DNA of 64,000 nucleotides from Albugo candida (GCA_040437565.1 JBDOQK010000005.1:806001-870000); one strand, 5' to 3'. Shown: positions 11,801 through 64,000, counted from the first letter of the stretch. The notes: a model not told the origin generated them from the letters alone. Numbers and translations are program-made.

Positions 11801-13043
11801 ATGTGGTTCTGCATCACATTACTTGTCCTCGGTTTTCATCTGACTTCGCCTTCTAGAATTGCATTTCAAGTGTCATCAAATGCCGATGTAAGTGTAACAC
11901 AATGCACTGATGTATTCATTTCTCTCATTTCGCTTACACGGAATCTAGGACTGCTTTTACGAAGAAAATGCGGCACGCGCATCTGCAACTTTTATGACAA
12001 TGCGTTTTGGTATATTAAAAGGCTCAAAGAACGATAAACTGGCCGTGGCAATCCATAGTCCATCTGGAAGAGTCATAAAGAGCTGGAATGCCACTCAAGC
12101 GGAACACACTACATCAGTACTGCACGAATTTGGAATGTATGCAATCTGTTATCGACGGATACAAGGATCGTACAAGATCAATGTATTCCATACTGTGGAG
12201 ATCATACCATCAGGAATAGCCGTTATTCTTTTATATCCCACGATGACGGCGACGCTGCAGAAGCGGAACCTTGCAGGAGCGAATTACACAATATTTCAAA
12301 CGTCAGATGATGAGAAAGACATGCAGTTTGGTATCACAGAATTCAATATCGAATCACTATCACCTAGCATGATAACCGATAGAACGCGGGCACTTCTCTC
12401 GCTTTCTGTCCGGTACAATTCGACCTCGAATGTGGTACTTCAGGTTGCCCATATGACCGACACGACACAATACCCGTTGAAATGGTCGCAGTTCGAATCA
12501 CATATAGAAAACTTATCGCGTCGTGAGATTGATAGAGACCAAGCTGCTAGTGGAAATCATGTGTATTTCGATATCACCGAATCTATCGAGGAGGCCATCA
12601 AAGACGGCAAAAGAGCTCTCACTCTTACGGTACATTAGGTCCTGTTTACTTGAAAGTGTTTGATGTTAAATACTCAAGTAGTTTCACGCCAAAGGGGGGT
12701 CTATTGGATTAGACGGCGTAGGCCATGCGTCAAGCTCATTGTATCCCCGAATCTTATTCGAAGAGGAAGAAACTGAATCACTGGAACGAATCAAGTATCT
12801 GAAAAGTCGTATCCTTGATTTACGAGGTGAAGTCTCCTACATTATTCAAAGAGAAGAGCATAGTCGCGATGGTAAGGAGATCTCTGCTGACAATGCAACT
12901 TACTAAAGACTCATATATATATAGCTGCCGAAAGCGTCAACTCACGGGTCAAGTGGCTTTCATTGTTTGTCAATGCTCTTTTGATGTGCATCGCATTGAT
13001 CCAGGTCTTTTATGTCCGAAAAATACTAGAGGGAGGTTACTAG
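11801..13043 (+). CDS. emp24/gp25L/p24 (TMED) family protein with signal peptide, GOLD domain, extra inserted domain, coiled coil and TM
   Basis: Signal peptide 'MWFCITLLVLGFHLTSPS'. After an intron comes 'DCFYEE...HSPSGRVI...GMYAICY' (GOLD). The spliced C-terminus 'SYIIQREEHSRD|AAESVNSRVKWLSLFVNALLMCIALIQVFYVRKILEGGY*' is the p24 signature. Confidence 0.85.
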
Positions 13044-23151: not shown

Positions 23152-26100
23152 CTACTGTACATTGTCACGATGCTTATGGACGTTTACGTCATCTGATGCT
23201 GCTATCGCTTCATCAAGAGTCTCCTCAATACGCATTCGGTCTTGTTGTTGACGTACTCTTCTTCTACCCAGAATTGATCGGATAGGTATTACATCACGAA
23301 GAGGCACTGGTGGTATAGCTGTATGATTTTGCATGATTCGTTCTATCTCGATTGGTATTTGTGTATTGTCAGAAGTATCCCGATGTTGGGAAAGATGTTG
23401 ATCGGATTCACTCGATGTGAGCATTTGCTTATCAGAATCGGACTTTCTCTTACTTGGATCAACTGACGACTCGCGTGTGTACAGGATCGCTGGTGTCGAT
23501 ACAACCTCACTCGATGATAGCATTTCTTGGCCCTTCGATTCAAATTCTACATATTCCCTTGTTTCGGCCTCATTGGTAGTACTCGANNNNNNNNNNNNNN
23601 NNNNNNNNNNNNNNNNNNNNNNNNNNNNNNNNNNNNNNNNNNNNNNNNNNNNNNNNNNNNNNNNNNNNNNNNNNNNNNNNNNNNNNTCTACCCAGAATTG
23701 ATCGGATAGGTATTACATCACGAAGAGGCACTGGTGGTATAGCTGTATACGTTTCACCAGGTCCACGCGATCTGCTTTTATCGTCTAATGTCTGATTTTG
23801 CATGATTCGTTCTATCTCGATTGGTATTTGTGTATTGTCAGAAGTATCCCGGTGTTGGGAAAGATGTTGATCGGATTCACTCGATGTGAGCATTTGCTTA
23901 TCAGAATCGGACTTTCTCTTACTTGGATCAACTGAAGACTCGCGTGTGTACAGGATTGCTGGTGTCGATACAACCTCACTCGATGATAACATTTCTTGGC
24001 CCTTCGATTCAAATTCTACATATTCCCTTGTTTCGGCCTCATTGGTAGTACTCGACACGGACATTAGTTGGCTGGATACTGTCTCGGTACGAACTTGCTT
24101 CGGAGAATCGAGTGAGGAAATTGCATCTATCTCCTCAACTGAGGTCGTGCTTCCCCGCCGTCCTTTCTTTGGTTTCATATCGCGCGATTTGATCTTGGGC
24201 ATCGCAGATAATGCATCTTGCTTGCTTGATCTGCGCATGAGTCTAGCCGAACTTGATAGATTCTTTCTTCGATGCAATGGATTCGCAGTCATATGGGCGA
24301 CCATCTCCAGACCATCTTCATCATCATCTTTACTCGGTGGTCTATACAGATCTGCTTCACGTTCCACATTTCGATCTCGTTTCCCAATTTCCGAGACTGG
24401 AGTCAATATACCACTTCCTGCAGCGACAGAGGCTGTTTTTGACCCACTCATCGATTTCTTAAATTCAAAAATTTTCTCGTACAAATCAGGGCGTAGAGCA
24501 ACTAGCAGTTCCGTTGAGAGCACAGCGGCGAAATAAGCACAGCTACCAAGTATCAACAATATTGTCCAGGCAGAAAGAAGTTGAGCTGGGACACTATTAA
24601 AACCGTCTTTTTCCGAGCCCAATTGACCGCTATCAAACATCACTCCACTCAAAAGGATCATACAAGAGCTAAACACCAATGTTGCATCGACAGAGTTATG
24701 ATCCCACAAATTCTCAGTAGATATAATTGGTTCGAGATTTATAGCTCCTATATTTGCTGTAGGAGTTTGTGCTGTTTTAGTGATTGTTGACATCGACCTA
24801 GTTTCATTTTCATTGCTGGTGAATGTACTTTGTATTCCTCGGTGTATAAACCACTTTGGGAATCGCTTGAAGAGCTGGAAGGAGGCGGGCTGGTCCAGTT
24901 TATCTTTCGATAAATTAGACTCGAAGTCATCAATCTTTGATTTATTGTGATTCTTTCGAAAATCAGTAGTAGGCTGTGTGACTATTTCATCTCTCTCAAC
25001 AAGTCTCAAATGCGCTGGCTGAATATATTTGTCACCACGTAATTTGGCCAGGCGAACTTCCTGCAATACGTGCTTGGAATAATCTTCTACTACCTTTTTC
25101 GTCTCACTTGCGCTCATGTACGGTTTATTACGCACCTGGAACGCATAATGGAGCAGGAGTAAGAGCATCACAGCCGCTAATTGGAATGTTGGATGTTGAC
25201 GAAAGAGAACTGCAATGACTACAACTAGGAACTTTCGAACAATAATGACCACCATCCAGAACCAATAACGAGGTTTGAATTGGTAATATAAACGCGAATA
25301 CTTTTTCCGAAAATCCCAACAGTTTGGATTCGTCTTCCTTGTGGTCCCACGTTGCATAGCACGTAATAATTGATCTTCCCTCACCAAATCCCTGTTTCTG
25401 TATAGCGTGTAAAAGACAAATAGTGGATAGCCTAGTGTGTAGACAAGAAACGATACCACTGCATACGGAAACAATTCCGAGTGCATTCCTCCGGGTTTGA
25501 AGCATTGTGCATATATGGATACCATGTACGTGTTTCCGTCAGCTGGAATAGGAGATACGCAATTGAATATTTCCAATGTAGTTCGGGTTAGATACAAGTA
25601 CATGTAATACAGCATGAGCAATGTGAAGCCAAAAAGTAGAGGTTTGTGCGTAGTCAATCGAGTGCGACGACCTTTGATATATCTTTTGAAGGCATATTTG
25701 GTGACAAAGATGATCACAGAAATAAGCGTGAGAGCCAGAGGCAATACCTCAATACCAATCCACTTCATCTTATATGTAATTGGAACACTTAGGCACTCTG
25801 GAGNNNNNNNNNNNNNNNNNNNNNNNNNNNNNNNNNNNNNNNNNNNNNNNNNNNNNNNNNNNNNNNNNNNNNNNNNNNNNNNNNNNNNNNNNNNNNNNNN
25901 NNNCCACGTTGCATAGCACGTAATAATTGATCTTCCCTCACCAAATCCCTGTTTCTGTATAGCGTGTAAAAGACAAATAGTGGATAGCCTAGTGTGTAGA
26001 CAAGAAACGATACCACTGCATACGGAAACAATTCCGAGTGCATTCCTCCGGGTTTGAAGCATTGTGCATATATGGATACCATGTACGTGTTTCCGTCAGC

Positions 26101-29100
26101 TGGAATAGGAGATACGCAATTGAATATTTCCAATGTAGTTCGGGTTAGATACAAGTACATGTAATACAGCATGAGCAATGTGAAGCCAAAAAGTAGAGGT
26201 TTGTGCGTAGTCAATCGAGTGCGACGACCTTTGATATATCTTTTGAAGGCATATTTGGTGACAAAGATGATCACAGAAATAAGCGTGAGAGCCAGAGGCA
26301 ATACCTCAATACCAATCCACTTCATCTTATATGTAATTGGAACACTTAGGCACTCTGGAGCGATGATCTCCAAATTGAGATTGAATACAGAAAGAGATGA
26401 AAATACAGTTCGGATCGCATTTGGCCATTGGAGCCGAGTATTTCCAAAAATCGATAGTGTCTGAAAGTAGTCGATTCCGATTGACAAAAGGCTGAGGCTT
26501 ACTCCCTTTCGAGATAAGAAGTACGACAAGACACAAAGAATGGATATCACTATCAATACGATCACCATTAAAACCCATTTTTGAGCAGGACAAGAGCGAC
26601 AAGTTCCGTTCAATCGATGGTAGCTTTCTTCACACTCACTGCAGCGAATGCCCTTGTACCCTTTACCACATACATTTCTTCCTAGGCAAGCATCAAGAGG
26701 GTCACATCCAAATATATNNNNNNNNNNNNNNNNNNNNNNNNNNNNNNNNNNNNNNNNNNNNNNNNNNNNNNNNNNNNNNNNNNNNNNNNNNNNNNNNNNN
26801 NNNNNNNNNNNNNNNNNCTCCAAATTGAGATTGAATACAGAAAGAGATGAAAATACAGTTCGGATCGCATTTGGCCATTGGAGCCGAGTATTTCCAAAAA
26901 TCGATAGTGTCTGAAAGTAGTCGATTCCGATTGACAAAAGGCTGAGGCTTACTCCCTTTCGAGATAAGAAGTACGACAAGACACAAAGAATGGATATCAC
27001 TATCAATACGATCACCATTAAAACCCATTTTTGAGCAGGACAAGAGCGACAAGTTCCGTTCAATCGATGGTAGCTTTCTTCACACTCACTGCAGCGAATG
27101 CCCTTGTACCCTTTACCACATACATTTCTTCCTAGGCAAGCATCAAGAGGGTCACATCCAAATATATATTCGCCTTCACGCCAATAACCAGCTTCCGCTT
27201 GAGGAGGAGAATCACCTCCATTACATCGAGCGATTGGTGGGCATACCTCACAAAATCGAACCTCGGTTTTGTAGTAGCCAGCGCTACATTGGAATCGGAT
27301 TTCTGTTTGTGACTTGGCGGCAAGTAAATTTCCCCCAACATCGAGCACAAGATTGGTGATACCAGCTTGAATCTTCGGAGTTTTCCACATTAGTGTGTTG
27401 GCACTCTTCCATGTGACATTACCATTTGTCACTGAAGTATTAGAGGCAGCAAGTCTTCGTTTTTTTCGGTATAATGCTGCCGTATCAGAGCTATCTTGCC
27501 TTGAAAGACGTCGATTTCCCACCGTTGATTCACCAGCACTTTCCAGAAAACCTAGAGTAATGGCTCGATTAGGGAAGCACCCAAAATCACTTCCGCGGAT
27601 CTCAACGGTATTCGCACTATTCGCATCCGCCAAGTTCGGTATCTGCGAGTCGATAACGGGCTGGTTGAAAGTAAATCTTAGGGAGTTGCTGCTCACATTA
27701 TCGACAATCACGTAGACAGGGATATCCTTTCCAAGACCTGGAGGAACTTTTGTCCTTATCAGGTAGTCCGAATGAAAGTCAAATGATTCCATGGCGTTCG
27801 GATCGCTAAGGTCAGCGCTGTTTGGTGAAGCACACAATCGTTGGAAATCAGGTGACGAACAAGATTCTTTGAAAGCGAATCGTGGTAACACATCATACTC
27901 GGAAGGATAACACACAAGGTTCTCTGCATCTAAGCAAGGGCCACTGGTACTGTACTGACAAGCGTCGGCTTCACAGGCGAGTGGATGGGACGATTTCATG
28001 TCCACACGAGCTTCGCTACCTCCAATTAGCACTTTGGAGCGCCTGGTTCCAAAGTTTTTTCCGTACAGCGATATGAAGAAGCCACCGCAAGTGGTTAGAT
28101 TATCAGTGTCAGTGCTCAACGCCAGCAATTTGGGTGCTTCATAAGAAAACAAAATGTCGGGGCCGAGCGCGGGCTGTTTTGATATAATCAATCTCAAGTA
28201 TCTTTCGGCACCTTGACCAGGAGGTAAATAGAACTGGATAATGTTGTGGTTGAACAAGATGACATCTTTTTCAAATATGTCTATCGTTTCAAGAACTGAC
28301 GAATTAGGTGAACTTGGAACGAGTTGAAGTGACCAGGTATCTTTCTGTCTACCAAAGTTGCGTCCAGTGAGTGTTATCTTTACGCGTTCACAGTGTGTCG
28401 TCTGTGGAGGACAAACCATAGATACATGACCAGGACAAGATCCTCTGATGACCTCTACATATGGGCTATTCATAAGAGATTGATCTTCCCATCCATGAGC
28501 TGGTGGGGCTAAGGAAGATTCAGCAGATTGGTACAAGAGTACATCANNNNNNNNNNNNNNNNNNNNNNNNNNNNNNNNNNNNNNNNNNNNNNNNNNNNNN
28601 NNNNNNNNNNNNNNNNNNNNNNNNNNNNNNNNNNNNNNNNNNNNNNATCTTTTTCAAATATGTCTATCGTTTCAAGAACTGACGAATTAGGTGAACTTGG
28701 AACGAGTTGAAGCGACCAGGTATCTTTCTGTCTACCAAAGTTGCGTCCAGTGAGTGTTATCTTTACGCGTTCACAGTGTGTCGTCTGTGGAGGACAAACC
28801 ATAGGTACATGACCAGGACAAGATCCTGTGATGACCTCTACATATGGGCTATCCATGAGAGATCGATCTTCCCATCCATGAGCTGGTGGGGCTAAGGAAG
28901 ATTCAGCAGATTGATACAAGAGTACATCATCATACATAATTTTCCATTTTCCAGTAGTAAACGATCTGATGAGTGATAAAGACCGATGATCTGAGCCAAC
29001 ATAAACTGGCATGTCTCCAGAGAACACGTTGAGCAATTCTGNNNNNNNNNNNNNNNNNNNNNNNNNNNNNNNNNNNNNNNNNNNNNNNNNNNNNNNNNNN

Positions 29101-32100
29101 NNNNNNNNNNNNNNNNNNNNNNNNNNNNNNNNNNNNNNNNNAGTTGCGTCCAGTGAGTGTTATCTTTACGCGTTCACAGTGTGTCGTCTGTGGAGGACAA
29201 ACCATAGATACATGACCAGGACAAGATCCTCTGATGACCTCTACATATGGGCTATTCATAAGAGATTGATCTTCCCATCCATGAGCTGGTGGGGCTAAGG
29301 AAGATTCAGCAGATTGGTACAAGAGTACATCATCATACATAATTTTCCATTTTCCAGTAGTAAACGATCTGATGAGTAATAAAGACCGATGATCTGAGCC
29401 AACATAAACTGGCATGTCTCCAGAGAACACGTTGAGCAATTCTGCTACTTGAGTGTAGATAGCATCCACAGACGAAATGTTTGCTTTAATGCAGTAATGT
29501 GACTTTGATTTATCTATAGAAGAATCGATCTGTTGGAAATTACATTCAAATGGTGCTGTTTGCGTAGCGCACGGTTTTTCTGGAATGCTAACACATCCAC
29601 ACGTATAGCCATGTGTTGGACCGCTTGTTTGACTAATATTGTGAAGCACTGGCTGATCGTATGAAAATGTTGCATTTCGCATCGTTTCCTCATTTGTGAG
29701 GCCACTCACATTGACCACTATGGGAAGGTCGCACCCTTGACCTGCTCCAATCCTGCATATAATTTCATTGTGGGCAACCGAGACAATGTGACACCTGTAA
29801 GTGTCATTAAATGACACGCTATGTTGATCCGATAAAGATTGTGATCCTAGATTTTCTCCTTTGATACGCATTTCGTCTCCACCTTCTGTCGAATTACCCG
29901 TTGTAAAGTACGTGTAAATTACGGGAGCTTTGTATGCAAACAAAGTCTCATCTACTTGATCACCGACAACAAGCGAGAGCTTATGTCCACCTCCTTCACC
30001 TGCAGGAATTATCACGTCCAGACGGGTATGAGAATGAGACAGTATCTGCAGACCAAGCGAATCTAGAGTGACCGCTGGGGCCGTTCCAAAATTTGTTCCG
30101 ACTAATGTGGTGACTTTACCCTGCGTGGGTGCGGTGTATGCATTCGTCAGATCCCAATCAGCCCGTGGTGGTATATAATCTATGAACCGTATAGCGCTCG
30201 GTGTGCTACCTCGCAAAACTACCAAGTGTTGTGAGCTACCCTGTCCAGCGGGTACAGTACAAGTGAGCAAAGTAATGCCTGTAACACCAGCTCCACTCGT
30301 CGTGAGTAGTTTGCTGGGTGGTAGAACGGGAGTAGTGAGCTGGATGTTTGTGCATTGGGCAGAAGAGCCGACAAGCACCTTAACTTTTGAAGAACTTCCA
30401 AGATATTTGACATACAGGTTGAGTGTTGCCCCACCTATAGTCGCCGACTGTTGTGTAGACCTTCCAGCGACAGAAGATGGCTTATCACGATATAATGACG
30501 GATCCCCAGTAAAATGAAAGGATGTGGTGCAATTTGTTGCGTCGCAATTAGCAAGTAACGTATACCAATCTAATATGGTCGGGCAGCTCCAAACAAATGT
30601 CGCTGAATTACTCAAGATCCGGTTTCCTAATAATATTGTAACGAAGCCTGTTTTCTCCACGTAATCCGAGATGACAAGAGAATGATGACTCCAAGACGCA
30701 ATAAATTGATCGGTTCGGGAAACCAGGTTTTGAGACTTTATGCTGCTAAGATCGGCCATGGTGACAGGCGTTTTGGAGATAAGCAGTGTGCCGCTAGTGA
30801 AGAAGTTCGATCCGAGAAGAGTTAAAGTCACGCAAGTCGGCGCACATACAGGTGATCCTTCGTCTGTGTAAACTTGTTCGATGATGGGTAAGTCATAGCT
30901 TATTGGGAAGAATTCACTCTGCTGATAGATGCCCAAGAATTGTCCAGTTTGAATAGAGATGAAGCCATCCAGTCCGAATCCTGCAGGTATTCTCACAGTC
31001 AAGATCTCTAAACGTTTGTTATACAATTCCCAGGATAAGATTGGTAGGATTTGGGTCCTCGCCTTGACGAAGGTCTGCATCTCTGCTGGAAGTGTAAATA
31101 CAACCTTACACCCCGATTCTGTAGAATTTGCTCCGAAATTATGTCCCCTAATATGGATATATGTTGTTCCATTCGTGCTTGCAGTTAAAGATGAAATAGA
31201 GTCAATCGATGGTGTCCCGTACGATGTATGTGCTTCTGAAAGAAGTGAAGATTGGCCTCCAACTGCGACAATCCAGCGCAAATTCATTCCAGTACCTGGA
31301 TTACTCAAACAACAAATCGTAGAATCATTATGAAAGATAATCCTTTCGACTTTGTATTCTCTCCCTGTTGGACCATATGTGACGGCATCAAGATCAATCG
31401 AACTTGGACCAAAATTTCCGCCTTGTATTATAATTTCCTGAAATCCAAAGGCAGACGCATTGATGGAGCCGTCACCGCCAATGGATGTAATATACGGTCG
31501 TGCGTAATTGATAGTAGGGTTGGTGCTTGTCAGTCCATCTATGGTCACAGCCCAAGATAGTCTAATTCCTACACCGGGAATAGTATTGCAAACGATCCAT
31601 TCATTGTCGACCACAATCACACAATTTGATGCGGAAAACTCGGTTCCCATTACACCGTACGTAACGCTGTTTATTATGCTGGAATTTTTCCTTCCGAAAT
31701 TGAGACCACTGATGATAACTTCCTCATTACCACTGGTTTGCAACACACTAGTTCCATTTGGTCGAAACACTTTTGTGACAATAGGACCAGCATAGGATGT
31801 GTTCTGTATAAGGAAAGCAGATGTCACGTTTTCAATTGTCACCCTCCAGAGATGATTTGCTCCGGTTCCAGCTGGAGAGATGCATTCAATAGTATTGTGA
31901 AGATCCTTATTCATATAAAGCCGTTTGCAATTGGTTGGAGTGTATACTGTGTCATGCCCAGATGTGAACTCCAGAACTGGATCCCGGAAGAGAGCCACAT
32001 CGGGCCCAAAATCAGCACCCTCTATGAGAAATCTTGTACCTCCTATAGTGGAAAGACTTGAGAAGCCGCGTATAGAAGTGATTCTTGGAGCTAAGTAAGA

Positions 32101-35100
32101 ATGCAAGGTATCATCACTAGGATAATAGGCTTCGCTGCTAACATTATTCACCACGATACGCCAAACGAAATTGTTTCCACACCCTGGTACTGTTTTGCAA
32201 TTTAGTTCCACATGATCTGTGGTGACTATACAATCAGTGATCTCGAATTTGTGCTCTGAATTGAAATAGGATACAACTCGGTGCATTGAGGAGGTTGCAG
32301 CACCAAATCCTGACCCCAATATGCGCAGTTGATCACCACCTATCGTACTCAACGCTCCAAATGAAATTATACTCGTGATAGTCGGAGCCTCATAATGACA
32401 CAGACTCTCCGATTCAGGTGTAAAATCGTTACTGATTTGGCCACTAATCGCTACAACAAATGAAAATCCTTGTCCACTTCCTTGCACACTGCTACATTTA
32501 AGAGTCTGTTTTTGAGGGAAACCAGTTTGGTCTTGACCGTCCAGGGAGCAATTTTTAGCTGTAAATGCCCCATTTCCATATTTGACTGCTATCAGCTGGC
32601 TTGAGATACCTACGTAACCAAAATTGAAGCCTGTGATCACAATATTTTTGTTCTGTGCGTCGTGTGCAGTGGGGAATCGGTAGTTACAAACCACTGAGTG
32701 GATAATTGGTGCACCATAGGAGAGAAGAGGAACACTTGATGTCGCAGTAAAACGCACTGATCCAAGTCTCGGTACCTTCATTATGAGCGTCACCGTCCAA
32801 TATAGAAAGTTTCCAGCTCCGGGTGATGAAAGACATACTACTCCTGTATTACCCAGAACCAAGGAGCAATTCATAGCATCGTATAATACCCCAGACCCAT
32901 ACTTTGTGTATTGTAGCGTGAGATCCTCGATCAAGACGTCACTACCCATCCGTTGCTTGAATCCAATATTGGTACCACGAGCAAGCAGAAATTCACCTCC
33001 TTCGGTATTTAACATCGACGATGATGCAGAAGTCTCTCCGTCACTAGAAAGGATAGTTACATCATCAATGGTTGTGTCTTCTACATCTAGTATGGTAAGG
33101 CGCAAGGCGGTGGAAATAGCTAGAGGTGATTTACTCTCATCCACAACTCTAATTGTAATTTCATACTCCATAATAGATTCGTAGTCTAACGATCCATTCA
33201 AATAGATATGGCCAGTGGAGGCATTAATTCGGAAACTGGTGTCAGATCCGGATGGATAAATGCTGGTGATGATATACGTCATGGTAGAATATGAAGCCGT
33301 CAGAATATCAGGGTCTTTGCTGGTTACTTTGAACAGAAGTTCATCAATTGCGGCATTTTCTGGTACATTTGCGGTTGTGGCGAAAGAACCGAACCATTGC
33401 AATTCATTGATGTCGATGATTTGCACACGTATATCAAGTCTAGACGACAAGCCATTGCGGTCCTGTACCACAAGCGCAAGAAAATATAACTGAGGCTGAT
33501 TTTCATAATCCAATGTTTCTTTTAAAATGAGTCTTGCACAATTACCAAGTGCTGTGTCTTTCTCAATGCGCAAGGCGAAAATGGAATCGCAATTGTACTC
33601 ATTAATGCACCGAATGGAATACTGGAGTGCAGAATTATCACCCCGGTCAGGGTCATGTGCCCCAAGGCAACGATCGACTGTTGTGTTTTCGGTATTTTTC
33701 TCGTCAATCTCAAAAACCACATTTGATGCATCCGTGAGACTTCCAAAGGATGGTGATTCATTAACGTCCCTGATGAAAATGTTGAAGTCGGTGTTGCTAC
33801 AGCTATCAAACGTATCACAAGCTGCGACCGTACAATAATAAAGACTATTTGATTCATAGTCAAGACTGTTGCTCGGCCGTAATGTAATCTCTCCTGTAGA
33901 CAAATCAACCATAAAAGTGTTCTCGCAATATCGATTTTCTTTTGACAGTAAGCTGTATTCTAAAGTCTGAGTATCAACCGCGTAATTGGAAAGTTTTGAG
34001 CTTGCATTACCCTCCACCGGTGTCCCAGATGGAACATTTTCTTTTATGGTAAAATTTGATGGCATATTTTCCAGCCACATTGGCGGCATATTTGTACGAA
34101 GCACAGAAATACGTACGGGAACAACGATTGAGCAACGCTGAGTGTAGACAATACTCGATGTTTTCCCAGAACTTCCTCCATTATCAGTGATGATAATGAC
34201 AATATCGTATACAAGCGGAGCGATCATTTCGAAGTTGGAAGGGCTTCTCGAAAGATAAAGTTGACCAGACCTGGAGTCTATGGCAAACAGACTCGACGAC
34301 GACATATTGCTTGGAGATGCAAGATTATACTCCAGAATGTCTTCAACATCTTCGTCAAGAGCAGGTATGGGATACCCTAATTGTAGGCGTTTAGTCCTCT
34401 GTGTGTGGGCGTCTACCTCACTGACCGAAAAAGAGATGACGGATGCACCTACTGTCGGACAATCATTGGCATCTCTGACGGTTATTACAATGTGGCCTGT
34501 ACTATATAGTCCATTAGATGAGTAATACTCATCAAAGACAAGTATTGGAATAGAGTAAACCGATTTCTTTTCATAATTCAGTACTTGAGCGTTCATGCTT
34601 GAGCTATTACGGTCGCTTCGGTACGCTGTTTGATTCACAAGGACCGTAATGCTGTCGGTAGTATAATATCTGGCATCAAGCTCAATCCAGGTTTGATTTG
34701 TTGACTGTAATGAGGCATCACCTGTGTCATTATATGACATTTGGTCCCTTGCTAAATAGAATAATTGTACATCTGTTGCCCCATGCACTAATTTATACGA
34801 AAAGGACGGATTCTTGTCTGGATCTTCCGCTAGCAATTTGCAAGTTGAGGTTAAGTCGGCGCTCAAAAGATCCATCGTATTTTCAATAATCGAACAATGT
34901 ACGACCGGCGGTAAGGGTGTTTCTGCTACATCAATGAGATCGATGCGTAAATATCCGTCGCTGCATAGTGTGGAAATTATATCGTCACAGACACGTATAG
35001 TGAGTGAGTAAGTTGAAATTTCACGCTCATAGTCCAGTACTTTGGTCGTGTAGACTTCACCTGTTTCAGCATGGACCGCAAACGGTGTTGTCGTATCCAA

Positions 35101-53100: not shown

Positions 53101-56100
53101 ATTGTAGGATGAATCGTTTTGAATGTGGCACCAACGAGAAGTTCAGTACACTATCAATCCTCATTTTGGCATCCACAGTGCCAACTTTGCTACCCGGTAG
53201 GACATCTTCCGAAACGTTCAGCGTGAAACTGGCAAGAAGTGGAGGTTCTCCTCTTGCTACGGCTATAATCTCAACCATCAGTACATTGGTTGAAGACTTC
53301 CCAGCGCCGTATTCATCCACAGCAACGATTTGCAATCGATAAACGTCTTGTTTTAATGATGTGGAGGAGTTCGATATGTTGGTCCTTCTGAGGCATCTCA
53401 TATCTCTTATTGAGAATTGCATGGGATGGCTCGACCAAATAATATCGTATAGAATTCTAGATCCACGATTTTCCGGGTCGATTGCGCTGAAGTATGTGAT
53501 AACTTCGGTAGATGAAATGTTCTGGAGCACGCTCAGCTTTAAAGTACTAGGAGAAAAGTACGGGGCCTCGTTAACGTCCGCAATTTGAACTTCTAATTCC
53601 CAGCTAATGCTGTTGGAGTCTAGATCAACAACATAGAGATCCAGAAAAGCCGTTGAGACTTCTTCGTGGTCCAGCAGTGAAGAGTCGAGGACCGTGAGTA
53701 TCGCATCGTTGCTAGAAGTGCGATTGATTGCAAACATGCCTGCTCGCGGAAGTGAAGAAATTATTCTAAATGTCAGTTGATCATTCTTATCGGGATCATA
53801 GAAGTAAGAATTCAATCCTTGTAAGCTGACGACACTTCCGAATGGTGAATTTTCAGGTATAGATAAGGTCACACGATTTGGAATGCGAGTCGCATTGCGC
53901 AACTTTGGGGGCTCATTGACGTCTGTAAGCTGTATATTGAATGTCTGCGTTGATGAGAGACCGGTAGGCCCATGTATTGCAAGGTTAGTATTCGAGTATT
54001 CATAATCCGTGACCGTGACACAAATGTCAAAGACGGACTGATTTTCATAGTCGAGACTCCCATGAAGGAGCTCCAGATTTGCAGATGTATAAGATGTCGG
54101 CGTGATCCGAAATGCGTCTTCGTTACCATCGCCCAATGTCGATCGATGAGAAAATGACAAAGTCTGATTTTCGGGATCTACCCCAATGATGTTCATAATG
54201 ATAGTTCCACCAATTAAGTTTTCGTAAATTGGATTCGAGATGATGACAGAGAAGTCTGGCGCCTCATTCACGTCCAGTATATCAATGATCAACGAGCAAT
54301 AAGTCGCTCGCTCTTCTCCTTCTTCTGTGACTGAGATTTGATACGAGTATTGGTTTTTGCGCTCATAGTCTAATACAGAGTCTGAACCGCTACCGCCAGA
54401 AACAAAAACTTGCCCCGAGTCGACACCTATTGCAAATATCGGAGAGTTCTCGTTGGTCAAAAGCTTAAATTGGAAAACCTTATTGTACCCGTCAGGGTCT
54501 TTAGGGGATAGAGGAGAGCCAACAAATGTCATGGGTGGGGAATTTTCGCAAACGGTGCGATAAATTGGACCCGTTATCTCAGGTGGCTCGTTCACATTCA
54601 AAATGTTGATATGGACCCATGCGGCTGCATTTAGAGGATTCACTGGATCTGAGTCTTTTACCTGAGTGAGAATTGCGTACTGCTGTTTAACTTCGTAGTC
54701 AAGATGAGCATGGGCAGATACAAAGATCTGTCCATTGTCACTATTAATATCAAATTGCGCAGGTGAAGATTGTTCCAAGATTGAGTAGGTCAAATTCCCG
54801 TAAGTCAATGCTTTTGGACCATCCAAGTCCTGATCTGCAGCAACTAATGGGCCCCCGACAAGACTTCCAGGGCCTTTATCTTCTGCAATACTGCGACTAA
54901 GTGTTTCATTTCCAATAATCGATAGGCTCGATTTCGTGACGGTGCGCCAAAGCTCGTCATTTAATCGAAACTCAATGGTGACCGAGTCACTTTCAGAAGC
55001 AATCACATAAATAAAGATATCATGAACCCNNNNNNNNNNNNNNNNNNNNNNNNNNNNNNNNNNNNNNNNNNNNNNNNNNNNNNNNNNNNNNNNNNNNNNN
55101 NNNNNNNNNNNNNNNNNNNNNNNNNNNNNTGATATGGACCCATGCGGCTGCATTTAGAGGATTCACTGGATCTGAGTCTTTTACCTGAGTGAGAATTGCG
55201 TACTGCTGTTTAACTTCGTAGTCAAGATGAGCATGGGCAGATACAAAGATCTGTCCATTGTCACTATTAATATCAAATTGCGCAGGTGAAGATTGTTCCA
55301 AGATTGAGTAGGTCAAATTCCCGTAAGTCAATGCTTTTGGACCATCCAAGTCCTGATCTGCAGCAACTAATGGGTCCCCGACAAGACTTCCAGGGCCTTT
55401 ATCTTCTGCAATACTGCGACTTAGTGTTTCATTTCCAATAATCGATAGGCTCGATTTCGTGACGGTGCGCCAAAGCTCGTCATTTGATCGAAACTCAATG
55501 GTGACCGAGTCACTTTCAGAAGCAATCACATAAATAAAGATATCATGAACCCCCCGATGCATCTTTTTCTGAACGAATTCCTCATGAATATTACCATAAA
55601 AGGAGGTGTTTGGTCTGACCAATATCCCGTTGATCACAACTATGGCATTTGCCAATTTATCAACTGAACGTATGCGCACCGCAAACGCTGCCGGTAATGG
55701 TAGAAGAACATTCCATGTTAAGGACAAGATTTGAGGTGTGATTGGTCCTTGAGGGCATAGATTCTGAAGTCGGAGGTTATTAGTGGAAATCTGGAAGTCG
55801 TCGATAGTGCAATAAGCACGAAGACCACCAGAAATAACCTCTTCGATGATGGCTTGAACAATGAAGTAAAAACGAACGCTACTTGTCTCCGACCACTCGA
55901 GCAAAGTAGAAGGAACATATACGTTGTTCAAAGATACGTTAAGAGGTAGTGTCCTGATACGTAAAGTCTGGTTGATAGCGAATAATGGGACTTCATTCAC
56001 ATTCTCAACAATAATGCTGGCATTTAGTTGTGTAGATTGGGCTGGATGGCCGCTATCTTCTACCCTTATGGATAGCAAGTGAAGATTTCTTGACTCATAA

Positions 56101-59100
56101 TCCAAAACCTCGGATCTTCTGACTAGTAATTGACCCGTGCTTTCAATGATCCCAAAAATTTCATCTTCATTACCATAGGTGATCGAATAGCTGAGAAATT
56201 GACCAACATCAGGGTCTGTAGCCACTACTGGTTCTCCAACAAAGACCCCGGCAACTTCATTTTCATAAACATGAAATATAGAAGCAGAGGCAACTGGAGC
56301 CTCATTCACGTCCAAGATTCGTATTGTGAAAATGGAGGTACTGCAAACATTGGAAGGATCGCAACCTCTTAGCATTACATCATAAATTGGTGTAGCTTCA
56401 TAATCCACCACTTCATCCATACTTGTAATAATGCAATAGGACTGATGCTCTATTATGACAGTGAATGGTTGAGAGGAATTGCTCTCATTCAATTCGAGTA
56501 AATATATATGCACGGGTTGTTTCTCAGGATCAATTGCTATCGGAGTGGCTGATGTGTTGACAATAACGGTACCCCCGGGACTGTTTTCAACGACACTGGC
56601 GGTGTTGAGTATAAAATAAGGTGCTTCATTCAGGTCATTCACGTTGATATCAATATATTCTTGCGCTGATAAACCTAGGGGATCCGTTACCTTCACATGA
56701 ACTGTATACTTTTGTACCGACTCGTAATCGAAAATTTTGCTGTCTGTTGCAAATATAAAGCCTGAAACTTGGTCTACTCGGAAGAGAGAGCTATTTTCGC
56801 TAGGTACCATCTCGAACAGCAAATTATCCGAGTCGATATCAACCGCAATGATACGTGCTATAGCTTCGGATAGCTTTGGCGATGCTCCAGGTATGAATTC
56901 ATCAACATTACCAGTAAGGTGAGACAAGATCGTGGGAGCTTCATTGACATTAATCAGATGAATGTATACAGACGAATTACTAGTGCAAACCGGAATTCCA
57001 TCATCTGTAGCATAAACATCCACAACCACCATTGACGCTCTCTCAAAGTCAAGTAGTTCAACCGACAAGACCGCGATCTGACCGCTTATTTGATCAATTG
57101 TAAAGGTCCCAGTTTCATCGATAAGTTTGTAGTGGATCCTTGAACTAGGCGTAGCAGTACCAGTTGCGTGGTCTTGATCTGTCACGGCAATTGGGGATCC
57201 TATGAATGTTCCTGCTGCGCTGTTCTCGGGTACACTCCTCTCTGATCTTCCTGTTGAAGCGGCTTCAGGAAAAATTGGGCAATCATTTATATCAACGACT
57301 TTGAGAGTAGGAGTGCAACTAACGATGTTGCTTCCATCAGTTGCGCGAACTTCAATGCGATATAATGAAACTTTCTCATAGTCAAGAAGCGCTTGGTTTT
57401 GTAAATACAGATCTCCTTCTGTTCCTATACTGAAAATGCTCGTACTTTCGTGCGAGTCTACAAAGTAAGAGACCCTTGCACCTTCGGGATCAATCGCAGA
57501 TACTCTTCCGAGATAGAATTCCATCTGAGGGCCGTTTTCCTCAGCTGACGCTGTAAATTCATCCATACAAATCGGTGGCTCATTTTGATTAATAACATTG
57601 ACGCTCATATCGCAGAAGATAGTTTGGTATGTTTTCACAGTAGCAGAATATTGCAATCGGTAGGTGTTTTGGGTTTCATAGTCGAGAGTTTGGCCAGGTC
57701 GGAGTAAGAACTCACCGCTTGACTCGTTGACGGTAAATGACGTCAGAACATGTTTGTCTGTGCTAATAAGAGTATAAAAGTCAGCAAAGATACTTGCACT
57801 TTGTTTTGGTGTGGATGCATCGATAACTTCGAGAAACCCGAGGGACACATCACCCGTATTCTCCAGAGCCTCCATAACTTTTGGAGGCGTGGGGCATGCA
57901 ATGGTTACAGCTACCGCCATTCCAGTAAGCGCACATCGAGCTTTGATGGTATGCATGCCATCACTTACGTCAAGTATAAGGGTGTAAGATACCAATTCGA
58001 GGTTTGAAAATCCTCCCGTTCGGTTTATGAACAAGAAGCCGTCATTACTTACATCGAAGGGCAAAAGGGTAAGTGCATCACTACTATTTCTTGTTGCTGA
58101 ACTGATTGAATATGACATCCTCCGTTGTTCAGGGTCTTGCAAGAGCAATTTGATAAGCCGATCACCGTATTTGGCGTCTTGATGATAAGTTACATTGTAG
58201 ATAGTACTGCCGAATGGAGGTTCATCAAAATCAATGATATTTATCACTGCGACGCATGTTGTTGTAGCTCCATGGCTATCTTTTGCCAATACTTCAACAT
58301 AGTGGATAGACTGTGTCTCGAAATCCAGATTAACCCTTGTATGAAGTCGACCGAGATCATCTATCCTGAAGGTTGATGTCGCGTTCAACAACTGATACAC
58401 AAATGACAGATCAGTGGCGTCTTCATCGGACACAATCACACCAGTTTCTGATATGATTGATTCTGGTGCCGCTGTCTCGCTTATCTGATAGTGTGGACAG
58501 GAGGCTTGAGGTGCATCATTTTCATTTTTTATTTGCACATCGAAATTGATGAAAGCACAGAGGTCGTAATCAATAATTTGAACCGATATAGTGTGCTTTG
58601 GGCGAGATTCATAATTGATACCAGTGGAGCCTACCATCAGCGAATTATTTTGTATGTAGAAAGCTCCTTCCACACTCTGATTTCGCAAAATAAACTTAAG
58701 ATCACGACTTTCTTCTGGATCCCTGACAATCGTATTCAAGGGAGCCGCATGATCAACCTCAGTGCCTTCAGCACTATTCTCAGAAACCGATATTTCTTCG
58801 GTTGGCAGAAGCATTGGAGCTTCATTGACATCATTGACAATGACTTTATACAGACATTGTTTTGATAAAGCCTCTGGTGACCAGTCCTGGACTGAAACTA
58901 TGACTCTTATTGATTTCTGTAACATCGATACATCGAATACTCGTACCCAATCGCTATTTTTGTAGCGGAGATAGAGAGCCTCTTTGCTTGATGGGATCTT
59001 GATTGACATGATTCCGTCGAATATTACACCCCTTCCGATCCCAACATGATGCGAGCTGACTTTGATTACGAGGGAATTCGATGCATCGCCATTCGACGTT

Positions 59101-62100
59101 CGTAATGCTAAGGCGTCTTGAAGCATAGACAGCAATGTTTCTTTGCTTAATTCGGTAGCGGGAAAGTCTTGGGAATTCCTATAATTGAATGATAATTGCG
59201 CTTGTGTTGAGCCTGACGTATCCATGAGTAATCGCACGCTGGAGACGTTAAGCTCTGAATGCCCATCTTCTATACGCATAAAAAGATCCAGTGCATCGAA
59301 TGCTAGCGACTCATAGTCGAGGCAAGCGCTTGAGTAGACATAAACCTGTCCTGTCACCTTATCAATAGAGAAACAGCCGGCTATGTCTTGACTTGCGATT
59401 GCATAAAATACTCCTCCGTCGAGGTCTTGGTCGTGAGCCAGGATTGCCGATCCAATAACACTTCCTATCGGTGAGTTTTCATCTACATATGCATTGGTAT
59501 GTTGCGTTGTTGAGAAATTGGGTGCTTCATTCACATCCTGTATCATGATAGATAAATTAGCTGGCGAAGAAATCAAGCCACCTCGATCGATAGTAATGAA
59601 TGTGAGAATATGATGATTTTGTTCTTCATAATCTAACGGACGAAAGTTCCAGATCCTGTAGCTCGCATCCAAACTGAAAAAGCACGGGGACGGGCTGCAT
59701 TTGATCAATTCAATTGTATGTTCGTCATCAACGTCTTCGTCTTGTACAGAAGCCAGTGATCCTTCAAGTTGCACTGACACGTTTGTATTTTCTTTAACAA
59801 ACGTACCGGAAGTGATTTGCAATGATGGAGCCTCATTGATATCCAGTACGCTAACAATGACTGTAAAGTTGCTACTAAGTGGAGGGTTACCCGAATCCAT
59901 TGCATTGATCACGAGAGTCGTACTGTTTTGTCTCTCAAAATTTAGCTCACTATGGCGACGGTATACGCTTAAATGATTGCTGCTCGTGCTACCGCAGCTT
60001 TCTCCTTCGAAGCAGCGAGCATCACACGACGCATAATTCAGTGCCTCTGACGAGATTGCAGGTTCTTCGTTTGTGCACAGGCACCTTAAATCGACCTCTC
60101 TCTGAATGGTCATAAATTGGTGCATTTTGCATGCAACTGAGCAATCTGCTAGCATTCTGGATGGTAAAGTAGAATTGATCAGAGCCAAATTTCTCTTGAG
60201 TATTCTGAAACACCCAATAAAGACGTTCTGAGGCCCATTACCGACGCTCAGCTGACCGGTCAGAGAGTTAATTGTAAAGAATTCTTCTTCGTTTCCATCA
60301 ACCAGCATGAATGAAATGGTTTGCCATGTATCAGGGTCTGTTGCAAGGAGTTGATCGTGCACGATGGTCCCTTGCCTCGAATTTTCTGGTATTGTGCGCA
60401 TCTGATTGTATACTATAGGTGGTTCATTCACATCTTGGACGAGTACAGTCAAGGTCATAGTGGCATATTTGGTATCCATTTTGCTTTTACTGACCAAAAT
60501 AGTTAGCTGATAAGTGGCAGTGACCTCATAATCAAGTCGTGCCTTTGCAACCCATAGTGATCCATTCGCCAAAACAAATATGCCATTTTCGTTCCCACCA
60601 GTTATGTTGTAGAAAAGATTGCCGTTCTGTACATGACTAGCACCAAGAAACCCAACGAATTGACCTACCTGAGTGTTTTCAGCGATTGTGAAGACGGATG
60701 TATTACTAATTACGGGTAATTCGTCCTCATCAACCACAGACAAAGTGACAAGGGACGGATTACTTGTCAGATTACTTGGATCTTGAACTGTGACTTGAAA
60801 AGCGTACTGACTTTGTCGTTCATAGTCCAAACTCGCGTCTTTTCGTAATCGAATAGCTCCAGTGTAGGGCTGAATTTCCAATATACGAACAATGTCGTCA
60901 GCCGTACCATCTGCGAATGAGTAAATTAAACCAGAATTTCCTGTGTCATCGTCATCTGCAACAATATGATCAACCGCTGCAAAAGAGACTACATTAGTCT
61001 GTGAGAGCTCCAGGCCGTTCAGGTATCCAACTGTGTGCCATGACTTGTGTAGTGTGTTGTAGTATCGAATCGCGATGGTAGATACGCAATGATTTGGGCT
61101 TTCGGAAGACCTTATCATGATTTTTGAGGCATCAACGACTTGAGAAAAATATATATCAATACTAGCTCCCATGTCGTCCCCATTGATCGATTGGAATGTA
61201 TAGGTAGTGTCTCGATCATTGTCTATTGCCTTTTTCAAACTATCAAATGTAGCGCCGTCGGAAGAAGTCATATTTGAGACTACCTCCATAAGATGCAAGC
61301 GTTTGCGCTCTGAAAACCATACTATTTCACTGATTGAGAAGGACTCGATTCCTTTATCTTGAACCACTAGCAGCTGCCACCTCGAACTATACTGTCTTGC
61401 TTCGCCTCGTACCGGTGCTCCATCAACAAGTAATGAACTAACAGAAGAGCTGCTGGATACATTAGGAATGATATAGTGACTGTAATTTCTTCGCACCAGT
61501 TCATCACTCTCAAATCTACAATAGAGCGATTATTAAATATATGAGAGCACGCCAAATCGTCATGGTACCTGTGGTAAGAAATCAGAGAAGCGTCGGGGTA
61601 TGTGATCACTTTGTTGTATACATTCCGCAAAAATTCATGTGTTTTCTCTTCAGACCAGCACCTTACCTCATCAATCCAAAAGGAAAAGGGTTTGCTAGGG
61701 CACATAAGCTCATCAAAGCAGGTACCAAAAATAATGACTTCCGGATTAAGAGGCACCCCAAACAGTGGGAGCACCACCGAAGTCGGTAGGTTTTGTTGAA
61801 TCACGCGGGATCCATCGATATATATATTTAACATACCAGTGTCAGAACTGAACGTAGTTGCTATATGATACCATACGCTCTTATCCATGCGATATCGCGT
61901 ATCCAGACTTGCACTACCAAGTGTGATTTGCAATGTGTCTGCAGAGTAGATCCACTGTAAGAATAACAACTTTTCTGACCTATTCGTTTGTTTGAGGTAC
62001 AAAGTCAGCAAACTCCCTTCGTTTTGCTGCAAATTTATCCAACCATCCACGGTGAACTTACTTAGTAAAGGCCATGACTCTAGATGCATAAGAGTATATG

Positions 62101-64000
62101 GGTGAAAAGGCATCTTTATCGACAGGGAATGCATTGAGATTAAAGCTGCTTTTAACGGAGCATCATTTGTCAAATAGCTGTCCTGCTGGATCAATTCTCC
62201 CGGTGCTGTAGGCAAAAGCCTCTCAAACATTTCACAATCAGCGCACGGAACGGTGCAACCCGCTCCGTCTTGTAAAATACGGTCTGTCAGACGACATATC
62301 GCCTTTTCTGTCTGGTACACGCCTCCAAAACATTCAGAACGAGATGCGCAAGCGCTCATGCAGGATGGGAGGCTATTGCAATGCGACACAAGCGCTATCG
62401 CGGTAGTTGTTAGGTCACAAGCTCCGCGCTGATTGAATAGAGTTTGAATGAGTTGACCCGCTTTTGCGCTTTCTTCGATAAAAAAATGCTGATTTGGTAG
62501 AATCCACGGCTTTTCATTCACGTCTGCGATGATAATGTCAAGCGAGCTCTTCTTCAGTGCACCTTCATGATCCCAAGCGACAATACTAATATTGTAAAAT
62601 TCTCGCATCTCATGATCAACAAAGCCTCCAAGCAATATGTAATGCGTAGTAGCATTGATATGATCAAGTCTGAATGTCGTGGTGGTAGTTGATAAAGAGG
62701 CATCGAGTGTCTCATTGATGTCTTCGTCGTACAGAACCAGTTGTGCAATCACCGTTCCAATTCCAAGATTCTCAGGTACAATAACGCTTGTCAGCTCGGA
62801 AGTACCCTCTGCAGTTAGAAATTTTGCTTCAGGAGGATCATTCCTATCGTCGACCATAATACTTACACTCATGTATGTGAAGTGAAGAGAAGATTTCGCA
62901 TTTCGGACCACCACGGTGAGATTGGGGTAATATGACTTGGCCTCGTAGTTGAGATTACTCATAACGGAAATTTGCCCTGACGAATTTGAGATAGTGAACG
63001 GTATATCCGCTGTCATTGTTCGGGCGAATTCAAACAGAAAAAAGTTGGAGCTACCACGTTTTCCGCTGTCTTCATCCCTGCAATGATTCCATAACGCTTC
63101 ACCCACTGGAATTTCGATTACGGCATCCTCGGGAACATTGAAGTCCGCAGTTTGATCACATTGGGGAGACTCTATCTCATTCAAGATCCAAATAGTCGCT
63201 GTGCAAGTGCCAATTAACGGTACAACGGTATCGTCTCTCACTTCAATCTCCAGGATGAATTTTGTTGCTGTTTCAAAATCGGATGTATTCGTACCGACCG
63301 AGAGATCACCGGTCGATTTGCTAATGCGAAACATGTCATACTCGTTGCCATTGAATACTGAATATTCGACCGCATTTCCACCAAGCCCGTCCACAGCGAT
63401 CACATTGCCAATCCAGGATCCAGTCGGAGAGTTTTCAAGCAGAGAAAAGCTCATATCAAAACACTCGGGTGGATAATATGCACCAAAAAGAGCCACCTCA
63501 AGCGTTATCTCTGAGTACATTTGATCAGTTCCACTACTCAGGAAATCAGTCACTTTGACCGTTACATTGTAGCATGTATTGACCTTGATCGTGACAGTTG
63601 GTCGTACCACAAGAACACATAACGTCGGATCCACTTGAGCTTGCAGTTCGAAGCTGGATGCCACATCTTGAGATATTGAGCATTTTCCTCCAGTTTGATC
63701 AACATCTGGATCTACGACGTGTAAGCGAATGGTTGAATACGATTTGGTCCCAAAAAGAAGCTGGGTGATGTTGATTTGGTAGTTCTTCTGGTTGAATACT
63801 GCGTCTGCAAAATAAGGCGGATCAGGGTAGTCTAAAATGACGACATCAAAGCTTGGTTTTGATAAAGCATACAAACCATCAGAATCAACCACTTTTATCA
63901 CGAGTTTGTAGATGTTTATACTATTGATGTCCAACTGACCCGCAACGGAAATAAGGCCGGTATCAACGTTTATACTAAAGTGCCCCAATGGGTCACCACT
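23152..64000 (-). CDS. Giant 9-TM (nonagonal-type) cadherin, 5' end beyond the window; about 12,058 aa encoded here
   Basis: About 70 repeats carry the cadherin Ca2+-binding motifs (xE, DxD, LDYE, DxNExP), followed by IPT/TIG repeats, a Cys-rich region and nine hydrophobic helices. The ORF fragments join in frame once ten gap-flank duplications (4619 nt total by my count) and intron 61516-61568 are removed, leaving 36177 nt = 12059 codons including the stop. Confidence 0.93.
27300..33070 (-). repeat. About 14 IPT/TIG-like repeats (protein-level)
   Basis: Recurrent 'T.GG..i.I.G.NFG ... C ... C...pG.G....W.V.v.g..S ... Y..P.I' units, for example LSTIGGDQLRILGSGFG, LQTSGNEEVIISGLNFG and NSTEGGDEMRIKGENLG. 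Confidence 0.8.
33080..64000 (-). repeat. Array of about 70 diverged extracellular cadherin repeats (protein-level repeat)
   Basis: Manual non-redundant count of about 71 linker motifs of the DVNEAP/DINEPP/NVNEPP type, roughly 110 aa apart, each usually preceded by (L/F)D(Y/F)E and DPD/DxD motifs. Confidence 0.9.
61516..61568 (-). other. 53-nt GT-AG intron; the only intron needed in the 41 kb of the cadherin gene seen here
   Basis: CACAG|GTACCATG...ATTGTAG|ATTTGAG joins ORF 61367-63988 to ORF 55020-61496 as 'LISYHR|FESDEL', restoring a LamG-like C-terminal 'Y.RFE' motif. Confidence 0.85.

Follow-up and report, generated by a model that had tools for sequence, protein, structure and literature searches.

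A putative nonagonal cadherin of more than 12,000 residues encoded by a single gene in Albugo candida

Introduction

The minus strand of a 64,000-nucleotide stretch of the Albugo candida assembly (GCA_040437565.1, JBDOQK010000005.1:806001-870000; hereafter the window, at its full length) is tiled from position 23570 to 64000 by eight stop-to-stop open reading frames (ORFs) of 216-5282 aa with overlapping ends. This raises the question of whether these ORFs are separate genes or pieces of one, and of what kind of protein such a gene would encode. An initial annotation, made from the sequence alone, had read them as one giant receptor of more than 12,000 aa with about 70 cadherin repeats, IPT repeats and nine transmembrane helices in a non-animal genome. 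Based on our analysis, we are highly confident that the locus is one very large gene of oomycete-type stramenopile character, with at least 12,043 codons and a 5' end beyond the window, and that it encodes a nonagonal cadherin in which at least 71 extracellular cadherin (EC) repeats with two LamG-type inserts are followed by 11-13 IPT repeats and then by a Cys-rich stalk; the stalk leads into nine predicted membrane helices, arranged with the N-terminus outside and the C-terminus inside, and a mostly disordered tail.

One reading frame across ten assembly gaps

Runs of undetermined bases occur 21 times in the window, each of exactly 100 N, and ten of these lie within 23152-64000 (23587..55552, no strand assigned; starts at 23587, 25804, 26718, 28547, 29042, 36285, 44663, 48307, 49802 and 55030). 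The sequence that precedes each of the ten gaps is copied after it, so that all ten are bordered by direct duplications of the contig ends, 157-716 nt in length and 97.5-100% identical. At these gaps the scaffolder left the overlapping ends of neighbouring contigs unmerged. At four of them (23587, 28547, 29042 and 44663) the duplicates differ by 1.9-2.5% (97.5-98.1% identity), with a 45-nt indel between the two copies at gap 23587, and these look like two haplotypes meeting at contig ends; the duplicates at the other six are 99.3-100% identical. The final 32 nt of the left contig end at gap 44663 (window 44631-44662) are the reverse complement of the sequence just past the gap. This inverted piece is probably a chimeric or hairpin contig end, and the frame continues only if it is trimmed. 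The N run together with its duplicate amounts to a multiple of three at only three gaps and shifts the frame at seven, which explains why some ORFs cross gaps and others break there. These seven frame shifts and one intron account for the splitting of the ORF into nine pieces.

The N runs and one copy of each duplication were taken out by a script. The collapsed sequence of 36,311 nt contains an ORF of 11,237 codons that runs from 61529 to 23155. A second ORF, 877 codons long and open-ended, lies in a different frame, and a 53-nt GT..AG intron at 61516..61568 (minus strand, as are all features of the gene given below) joins the two. A frameshift in place of the intron was considered and rejected, since in the alignment of the spliced product with P0156, a fragment from Phytophthora nicotianae, the junction itself is free of gaps. 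The exon that runs up to the 5' splice site (61569..64000) encodes residues 1-811 of the visible protein; it is open at the window edge and begins within an EC repeat, the first EC match spanning only positions 46-96 of the hidden Markov model (HMM) described below. The second exon (23152..61515) comprises 11,232 codons once the gap duplications are collapsed, and ends in a stop codon at 23152-23154.

After collapse and removal of the intron, 12,043 codons plus the stop remain (36,132 nt), in frame 0 from base 64000 and open at the window edge. A length divisible by three and in frame with the edge is also what the initial annotation had noted for the joined ORFs. The choice of the duplicate copy that is kept alters the length by at most 15 residues, at gap 23587. 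All 12 gap-free blocks are without stops in the giant frame, and a frame of 12,043 codons could not remain open by chance.

The remainder of the window shows the same assembly artefact. Among the 11 further 100-N runs, at window 1-23025, the end overlaps are perfect at six (45-252 nt) and near-perfect at two, and none was found within the 400-nt flanks of gaps 1884, 11656 and 17007. The entire scaffold seems to be built from unmerged overlapping contigs.

Orthologues and the origin of the length

Internal duplication as the source of the length was rejected, as the collapsed DNA gave no non-self blastn match to itself at E<=1e-5. Pairs of EC repeats have a median identity of 22.5% and a maximum of 37%. 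Together, these results indicate that the array is old and diverged, rather than the product of a recent duplication or of a duplication made by the assembly.

Named Phytophthora fragments are colinear with the predicted protein and jointly cover residues -505 to 11,913, apart from approximately 3416-3679. P0156 (3811 aa, filling a 12.5-kb contig) matches residues 1-3415 through its own residues 506-3749 at 32% identity. Further models align from residue 3680 (P0279 of P. pseudosyringae, labelled partial), 4039 (P0283, P. idaei), 4456 (P0282, P. cactorum) and 4695 (P0278, P. nicotianae), and four more (P0007, P0009, P0277 and P0280) align from residues 5380-5392 to about 11,870-11,910; residues 9-6175 of P0007, for example, match residues 5380-11868 at 39% identity. 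At 10 of the 11 junctions, that is, the intron and nine gaps, the orthologues show at most 10 gap residues within 25 residues on each side, and the last gap junction (residue 11900) lies beyond their aligned range. The single frame, its stop-free blocks and these colinear orthologues bear out the proposal that the large minus-strand ORFs belong to one gene, with a visible product above 12,000 aa.

P0156 reaches 505 residues past the window edge. This extension and the mid-repeat start of the visible frame indicate that the full protein is longer than 12,043 aa, and they place its N-terminus further right, as had been anticipated. The orthologue models that were examined likewise begin inside repeats, and the giant gene seems to be conserved in Phytophthora, where it is annotated only piecewise. 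The best named relatives come from Phytophthora and Pythium (one of the searches was limited to proteins of 3,725-5,000 aa and another to 3,448-10,973 aa), consistent with the non-animal origin claimed for the genome.

Two observations concern the existing gene models. Residues 5171-5373 (window ~46200-46850) form a non-EC spacer of about 200 residues, and the four independent models P0007, P0009, P0277 and P0280 all begin just after it; an internal start or an intron that is conserved might account for their shared start, as might a limit of the gene caller. Part of the gene (window ~23920-25120; block 23687-25801, residues 229-627) is represented in the database by P0006, a protein of 401 aa with 100% identity to it, so that the public gene call at this locus is apparently a small fragment.

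The ectodomain: a cadherin array, LamG inserts and IPT repeats

The EC array occupies 33073..63997 (residues 2-9491) and consists of 71 repeats with non-EC spacers between them. An HMM grown from one Pfam-positive repeat finds these 71 repeats at an independent E value (i-E) <1e-3, and 74 in total, in agreement with the roughly 70 first proposed. The same HMM gave no match at i-E<1e-3 in the reversed sequence or in five shuffled sequences, and a second HMM, trained only on 29 repeats that lie past residue 6000, recovers 40 repeats in residues 1-6000. By Pfam, 49 Cadherin stretches are significant on their own, although block overlaps may have caused as many as about five to be counted double. 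The Pfam scan also matches Cadherin_4, two Laminin_G_3 domains, IPT/TIG, DUF7630, PF06011 ('TRP') and, weakly, F5/8 type C.

The positions that bind Ca2+ in cadherins are largely retained. Among 63 near-full-length EC repeats, E11 is kept in 58, the two positions of the DxD motif in 58 and 49, the D and the E of the LDRE-type motif (here LDYE-type) in 52 and 61, respectively, and D80 in 54. The linker motif D-x-[ND]-[DE], mostly in the form 'DVNEAP', is present in 43 of the 71 repeats.

Two Laminin_G_3 domains are inserted in the array. The first, concanavalin-like, lies at 61637..62077 (residues 642-788; Pfam E 6e-10) and the second at 52367..52765 (residues ~3554-3686; E 1.1e-6, 29.3 bits against a cutoff of 27.6). 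The array is followed by IPT/TIG repeats at 27661..33042 (residues 9502-11033), 11 of which are found at i-E<1e-3 and 13 in total (Pfam TIG E 3.7e-26 and 1.1e-13); IPT repeats had thus been called correctly. A Cys-rich stalk at 26590..26706 directly precedes helix 1 and resembles DUF7630 below the Pfam cutoff (21.5 bits against 27), a match that is also found in 10 of 51 homologues of the membrane module.

A local difference from the P. nicotianae orthologue was seen within the array. Residues 1692-1770 of P0156, which correspond to window residues ~1232-1310, form a WSC (carbohydrate-binding) domain. No Pfam match to WSC was found in the window protein, in which an EC repeat appears split at that place (1242-1290).

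The nine-helix membrane module and its tail

The putative membrane module lies at 24494..26580 (residues 11244-11753), an interval that includes the gap at 25804-25903 and its duplicate. Hydropathy averaged over 68 sequences of the family gives nine main peaks at residues 11244-11750, assigned to helices 1-2 (26443-26580), helices 3-7 (25127-25774) and helices 8-9 (24494-24700), with a predicted cytoplasmic loop of 140-150 residues between helices 7 and 8 (24701-25126). In an AlphaFold model of the window's own 705-residue block, helices 3-9 mostly have a predicted local distance difference test score (pLDDT) >90; about 70 residues of loop are disordered, and the tail is of low confidence. In a model of the 850-residue homologue P0010, helices 1-7 are predicted at pLDDT 82-97. 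Loops rich in Lys and Arg alternate as expected for a topology with the N-terminus outside and the C-terminus inside, and conserved Cys residues, including an invariant pair, fall in the outside loops. The nine helices of the initial annotation are thus recovered; the count rests on hydropathy, the AlphaFold models and charge bias.

The module is the best-conserved part of the protein, with 42-58% identity to relatives compared to 32-39% across the whole length, and it holds invariant Pro, Cys, Gln, Trp, Arg and Lys positions across 50 sequences. At E<=0.001 the module has relatives in 1614 representative clusters, a number that falls to 379 at E<=1e-30; the named sources are Phytophthora, Pythium and Cafeteria. 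It stands at the C-terminus of long proteins with varied ectodomains, some of which have no EC repeats by the EC HMM and others of which carry Kelch, FN3 or discoidin labels.

No Pfam match to a six-helix ion-transport or PKD-channel domain was found in 12 window blocks or in the 51 module homologues. A search of the sequences of solved structures with the module profile returned low-complexity noise only (best E 0.078), and in the fold search the TRPA1 and TRPML1 structures surface only at E 6.6-7.3. The module is neither a six-helix TRP channel nor a seven-helix receptor.

The predicted cytoplasmic tail of about 290 residues (23155..24493) is rich in Ser, Arg and Glu and is mostly modelled at low confidence, with two long helices predicted. 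Neither a WW domain nor a PPxY motif was found in it. WW domains do occur in seven of the 51 module homologues (best E 1.9e-26), presumably on their cytoplasmic tails.

Likeness of the module to fungal Flc/Pkd2 proteins

The sole named family that the module resembles is PF06011 ('TRP'), which matches the window protein at 25106..25465 (profile positions 232-343 of 426; E 1.1e-6). The likeness recurs among relatives: 18 of the 51 module homologues match PF06011 at E<=0.01, and P0003, P0009 and P0306 carry precomputed PF06011 labels. Among Atlas feature matches, the top clusters score 0.94 and have PF06011 on 18-25% of their members; the best score is 0.77 when PF06011 clusters are excluded. 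In the excerpts of the papers cited in this section, PF06011 is described as the TRP domain of fungal Flc proteins (PMC9600462) and Schizosaccharomyces pombe Pkd2 as a Flc homologue (PMC6727746). For Pkd2, an outer domain of Ig-like type is predicted along with nine helices and a tail that is disordered (bioRxiv 10.1101/2022.08.11.503631), and the reconstituted protein lets Ca2+ through on membrane stretch (PMC9727806).

The window protein shares with Flc/Pkd2 proteins an outer beta-sandwich domain, nine helices with the N-terminal domain outside, and a disordered cytoplasmic tail inside. Its match to PF06011 over helices 5-7 is weak but recurrent. The protein differs from Flc/Pkd2 proteins in lacking an ML-like domain, in an outer part made up of cadherin, LamG and IPT repeats, about 11,000 residues in all, and in the 140-150-residue cytoplasmic loop between helices 7 and 8. 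This weak likeness suggests that the module may be a distant relative of the fungal Flc/Pkd2 'TRP-like' proteins, although homology is not proven. In the literature searched, no paper was found that links nonagonal cadherins to polycystin, TRP, PF06011 or mechanosensing. The link is visible in precomputed Pfam labels, so it may perhaps be known to specialists.

Comparison with other cadherins

Nonagonal cadherins of stramenopiles were reportedly described by Fletcher, van West and Gachon (Gene 2016), whose work we know from citations in other papers, and we know of no established function for the family. That the family had already been described, as the initial annotation stated, agrees with the passages that cite Fletcher et al. 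2016, one of which calls it 'tri-modular'. As far as the title and such citing passages define the family, the window protein has its three features: cadherin repeats, IPT/TIG repeats and a C-terminal nine-helix module. Its nearest named relatives are proteins of Phytophthora, Pythium and Cafeteria; those of Phytophthora and Pythium share its architecture and match with E values down to 0. Published members of the family include PPTG_11709 of P. parasitica, which is named in PMC7409359.

The protein thus appears, from its sequence features, to fit a known family, in which it stands out by its scale. It has at least 12,043 aa and 71 EC repeats, whereas the longest of the listed relatives measure 7,816, 7,614 and 7,516 aa (search range 3,448-10,973 aa). 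In an excerpt of the Pythium ultimum genome paper of 2010, 2-17 EC domains per gene are reported for P. ultimum and 1-7 for Phytophthora (PMC2926784). A giant oomycete cadherin was not found described in the literature searched.

Like the giant cadherins of animals (FAT, Dachsous, cadherin-23 and protocadherin-15), the window protein has long EC arrays with the same Ca2+ motifs, and like FAT it has LamG inserts; FAT4 proteins match it at 22-26% identity in the search of proteins of 3,725-5,000 aa. Animal giant cadherins have 27-34 EC repeats, and in the tip link cadherin-23 and protocadherin-15 pull on a separate channel complex. Animal cadherins cross the membrane with one helix and have tails of the catenin type or of other kinds, whereas the window protein has nine predicted helices, with a putative transducer in the same polypeptide. 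No Pfam match to a cadherin cytoplasmic-domain family was found in the window blocks and tail or in the 51 homologues.

The cadherin repeats ahead of a multi-pass membrane domain also recall CELSR/Flamingo adhesion G-protein-coupled receptors (GPCRs), and one Phytophthora orthologue is so labelled. Unlike those receptors, the window protein has nine helices rather than seven. There was no Pfam match to a 7TM, GAIN or GPS family in the 12 window blocks or the 51 homologues, and no GPCR fold match at E<=0.001.

A possible mechanism

We tentatively propose that the protein acts as a Ca2+-stiffened tether that pulls on the nine-helix module and thereby alters Ca2+ flux, a mechanism to which we give somewhat less than an even chance. 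The ectodomain would form the tether. Each EC repeat spans approximately 4.5 nm, so that the EC repeats would contribute about 0.32 micrometre and, with the IPT repeats added, the straight length would come to roughly 0.35-0.4 micrometre, broken up by the lectin-like inserts and by linkers without the full motif. The far end would bind the wall, the matrix, a substrate or another cell. Tension or displacement would then pass through the IPT/Cys-rich stalk to the nine-helix module, which might respond with Ca2+ entry or with another change in Ca2+ homeostasis. The initial annotation had suggested both a Ca2+-stiffened rod and a role in mechanosensing. The former gains support from the conserved Ca2+ motifs of the EC repeats, and the latter receives indirect support from the PF06011 (Flc/Pkd2) likeness of the module; both may describe the protein.

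It should be noted that several points weigh against this picture. The PF06011 score lies just below the Pfam cutoff (28.2 against 28.5 bits) and the match is limited to helices 5-7; 33 of the 51 module homologues have no PF06011 match at E<=0.01, and neither the 12 window blocks nor the 51 homologues matched the ML-like outer domain (PF14558). Neither model, of the window block or of P0010, has a fold match in PDB at E<=0.001, and the fold therefore offers no independent hint of function. Flc proteins were originally described as flavin carriers, according to an excerpt of PMC6727746, and channel activity within the Flc/Pkd2 family rests on a few studies. In the ectodomain, the full D-x-[ND]-[DE] motif is missing from 28 of the 71 linkers, and kinks or flexible stretches in the rod are therefore possible. 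As for the gene itself, all orthologous models found are fragments, none with a true N-terminus or a signal-peptide-like start. Structure and mechanism taken together form an explanation that we regard as evenly poised between right and wrong.

A bolder form of this proposal, which we think unlikely, would make the module a divergent Flc/Pkd2 member: a cation channel that shares one polypeptide with the Ca2+-stiffened cadherin/IPT rope that gates it, the rope being about a third of a micrometre in length. The hair-cell tip link and its transduction channel would then have a non-animal counterpart made of one chain, and the form of more than 12,000 aa would be a conserved ancestral state in peronosporalean oomycetes that is masked by fragmented gene models.

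Alternative explanations

The main rival is adhesion without transduction, which retains the gene and its architecture. The rod would stick cells, cysts or hyphae to surfaces or to one another as an adhesin or spacer only, and the module would be a firm multi-pass anchor or a trafficking module with no part in signalling. The lectin-like LamG domains of the ectodomain and the WSC domain of the P. nicotianae orthologue fit such a role, as does the weakness of the PF06011 likeness. In the part of a paper on P. parasitica zoospore aggregation that was available, cadherins are treated as adhesion candidates, with a family member expressed at a low level (PMC7409359). The pattern of conservation speaks for more than an anchor: the module is better conserved than the rest of the protein, it keeps positions that are invariant across 50 sequences, and one module is combined with quite different ectodomains across its 1614 clusters, including long members with no EC repeats, which fits an active module better. 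We consider a pure adhesin possible, if rather doubtful.

The remaining alternatives are lesser rivals. The module could be a transporter or homeostatic factor, or belong to a receptor that signals through its tail, rather than being a force-gated channel. Flc proteins have been tied to the transport of FAD and heme and also to Ca2+ and osmotic homeostasis, by a mechanism given as unknown in the same excerpt (PMC6727746), and the WW domains of seven of the 51 homologues, presumably on their tails, suggest protein-protein signalling. It is not obvious, however, what a rod of about 0.35 micrometre would do in the transport of small molecules, and the window tail has neither a WW domain nor a PPxY motif; we regard either version as improbable.

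Far less credible is a division of the locus into two or more genes, for instance one for a secreted cadherin (about 5,400 aa) and, after it, one for a receptor (about 6,600 aa). The common start of P0007, P0009, P0277 and P0280 at 5380-5392, just past the non-EC spacer, speaks for such a division. Those four models begin inside an EC repeat, however, without a signal-peptide-like start, and the other Phytophthora models, which start at 3680, 4039, 4456 and 4695, are colinear through that point. The 12,043 codons contain no stop, and the sequence is uninterrupted across the spacer and its flanks (block 44763-48305).

That the length is an artefact of haplotigs or repeats scaffolded in tandem, or that the locus is a decaying pseudogene, can be virtually dismissed: the assembly is poor (21 gaps in 64 kb) and the duplicates at four of the ten gene gaps suggest two haplotypes, but no internal DNA repeat is left once the short gap duplicates are removed, the EC repeats are too diverged (median 22.5% identity), colinear orthologues cover nearly the full length, and 36 kb free of stops would not persist in a pseudogene.

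Implications for oomycete cadherins

If the favoured reading of the gene holds, the protein is, to our knowledge, among the largest cadherins in any organism, by comparison with the 27-34 repeats of animal cadherins. Public oomycete annotations cut such genes into pieces, as seen in the 401-aa P0006, identical to part of this one, and in the Phytophthora models found, which begin mid-repeat. The cadherin gene and EC counts in oomycete genome papers would then be underestimates (for example, the 1-17 per gene in the excerpted text of PMC2926784). The link to Flc/Pkd2 supplies a concrete, testable hypothesis for the function of nonagonal cadherins. Ca2+ signalling is important in oomycete spores, as the title of PMC5322657 states, and the Ca2+ reading of the module would tie in with it.

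Surroundings of the gene

Rfam and tRNA scans of the window gave no match to a non-coding RNA. Three neighbouring plus-strand ORFs, at 9407-10141, 11949-12638 and 15420-16808, match TPR_12, emp24/GOLD (weakly) and FAD_binding_3, respectively, and have no evident tie to the giant gene. A 221-codon ORF on the plus strand (23871-24536) runs antisense to the region of the membrane module and tail; opposite so long a coding region, it is most likely open by chance.

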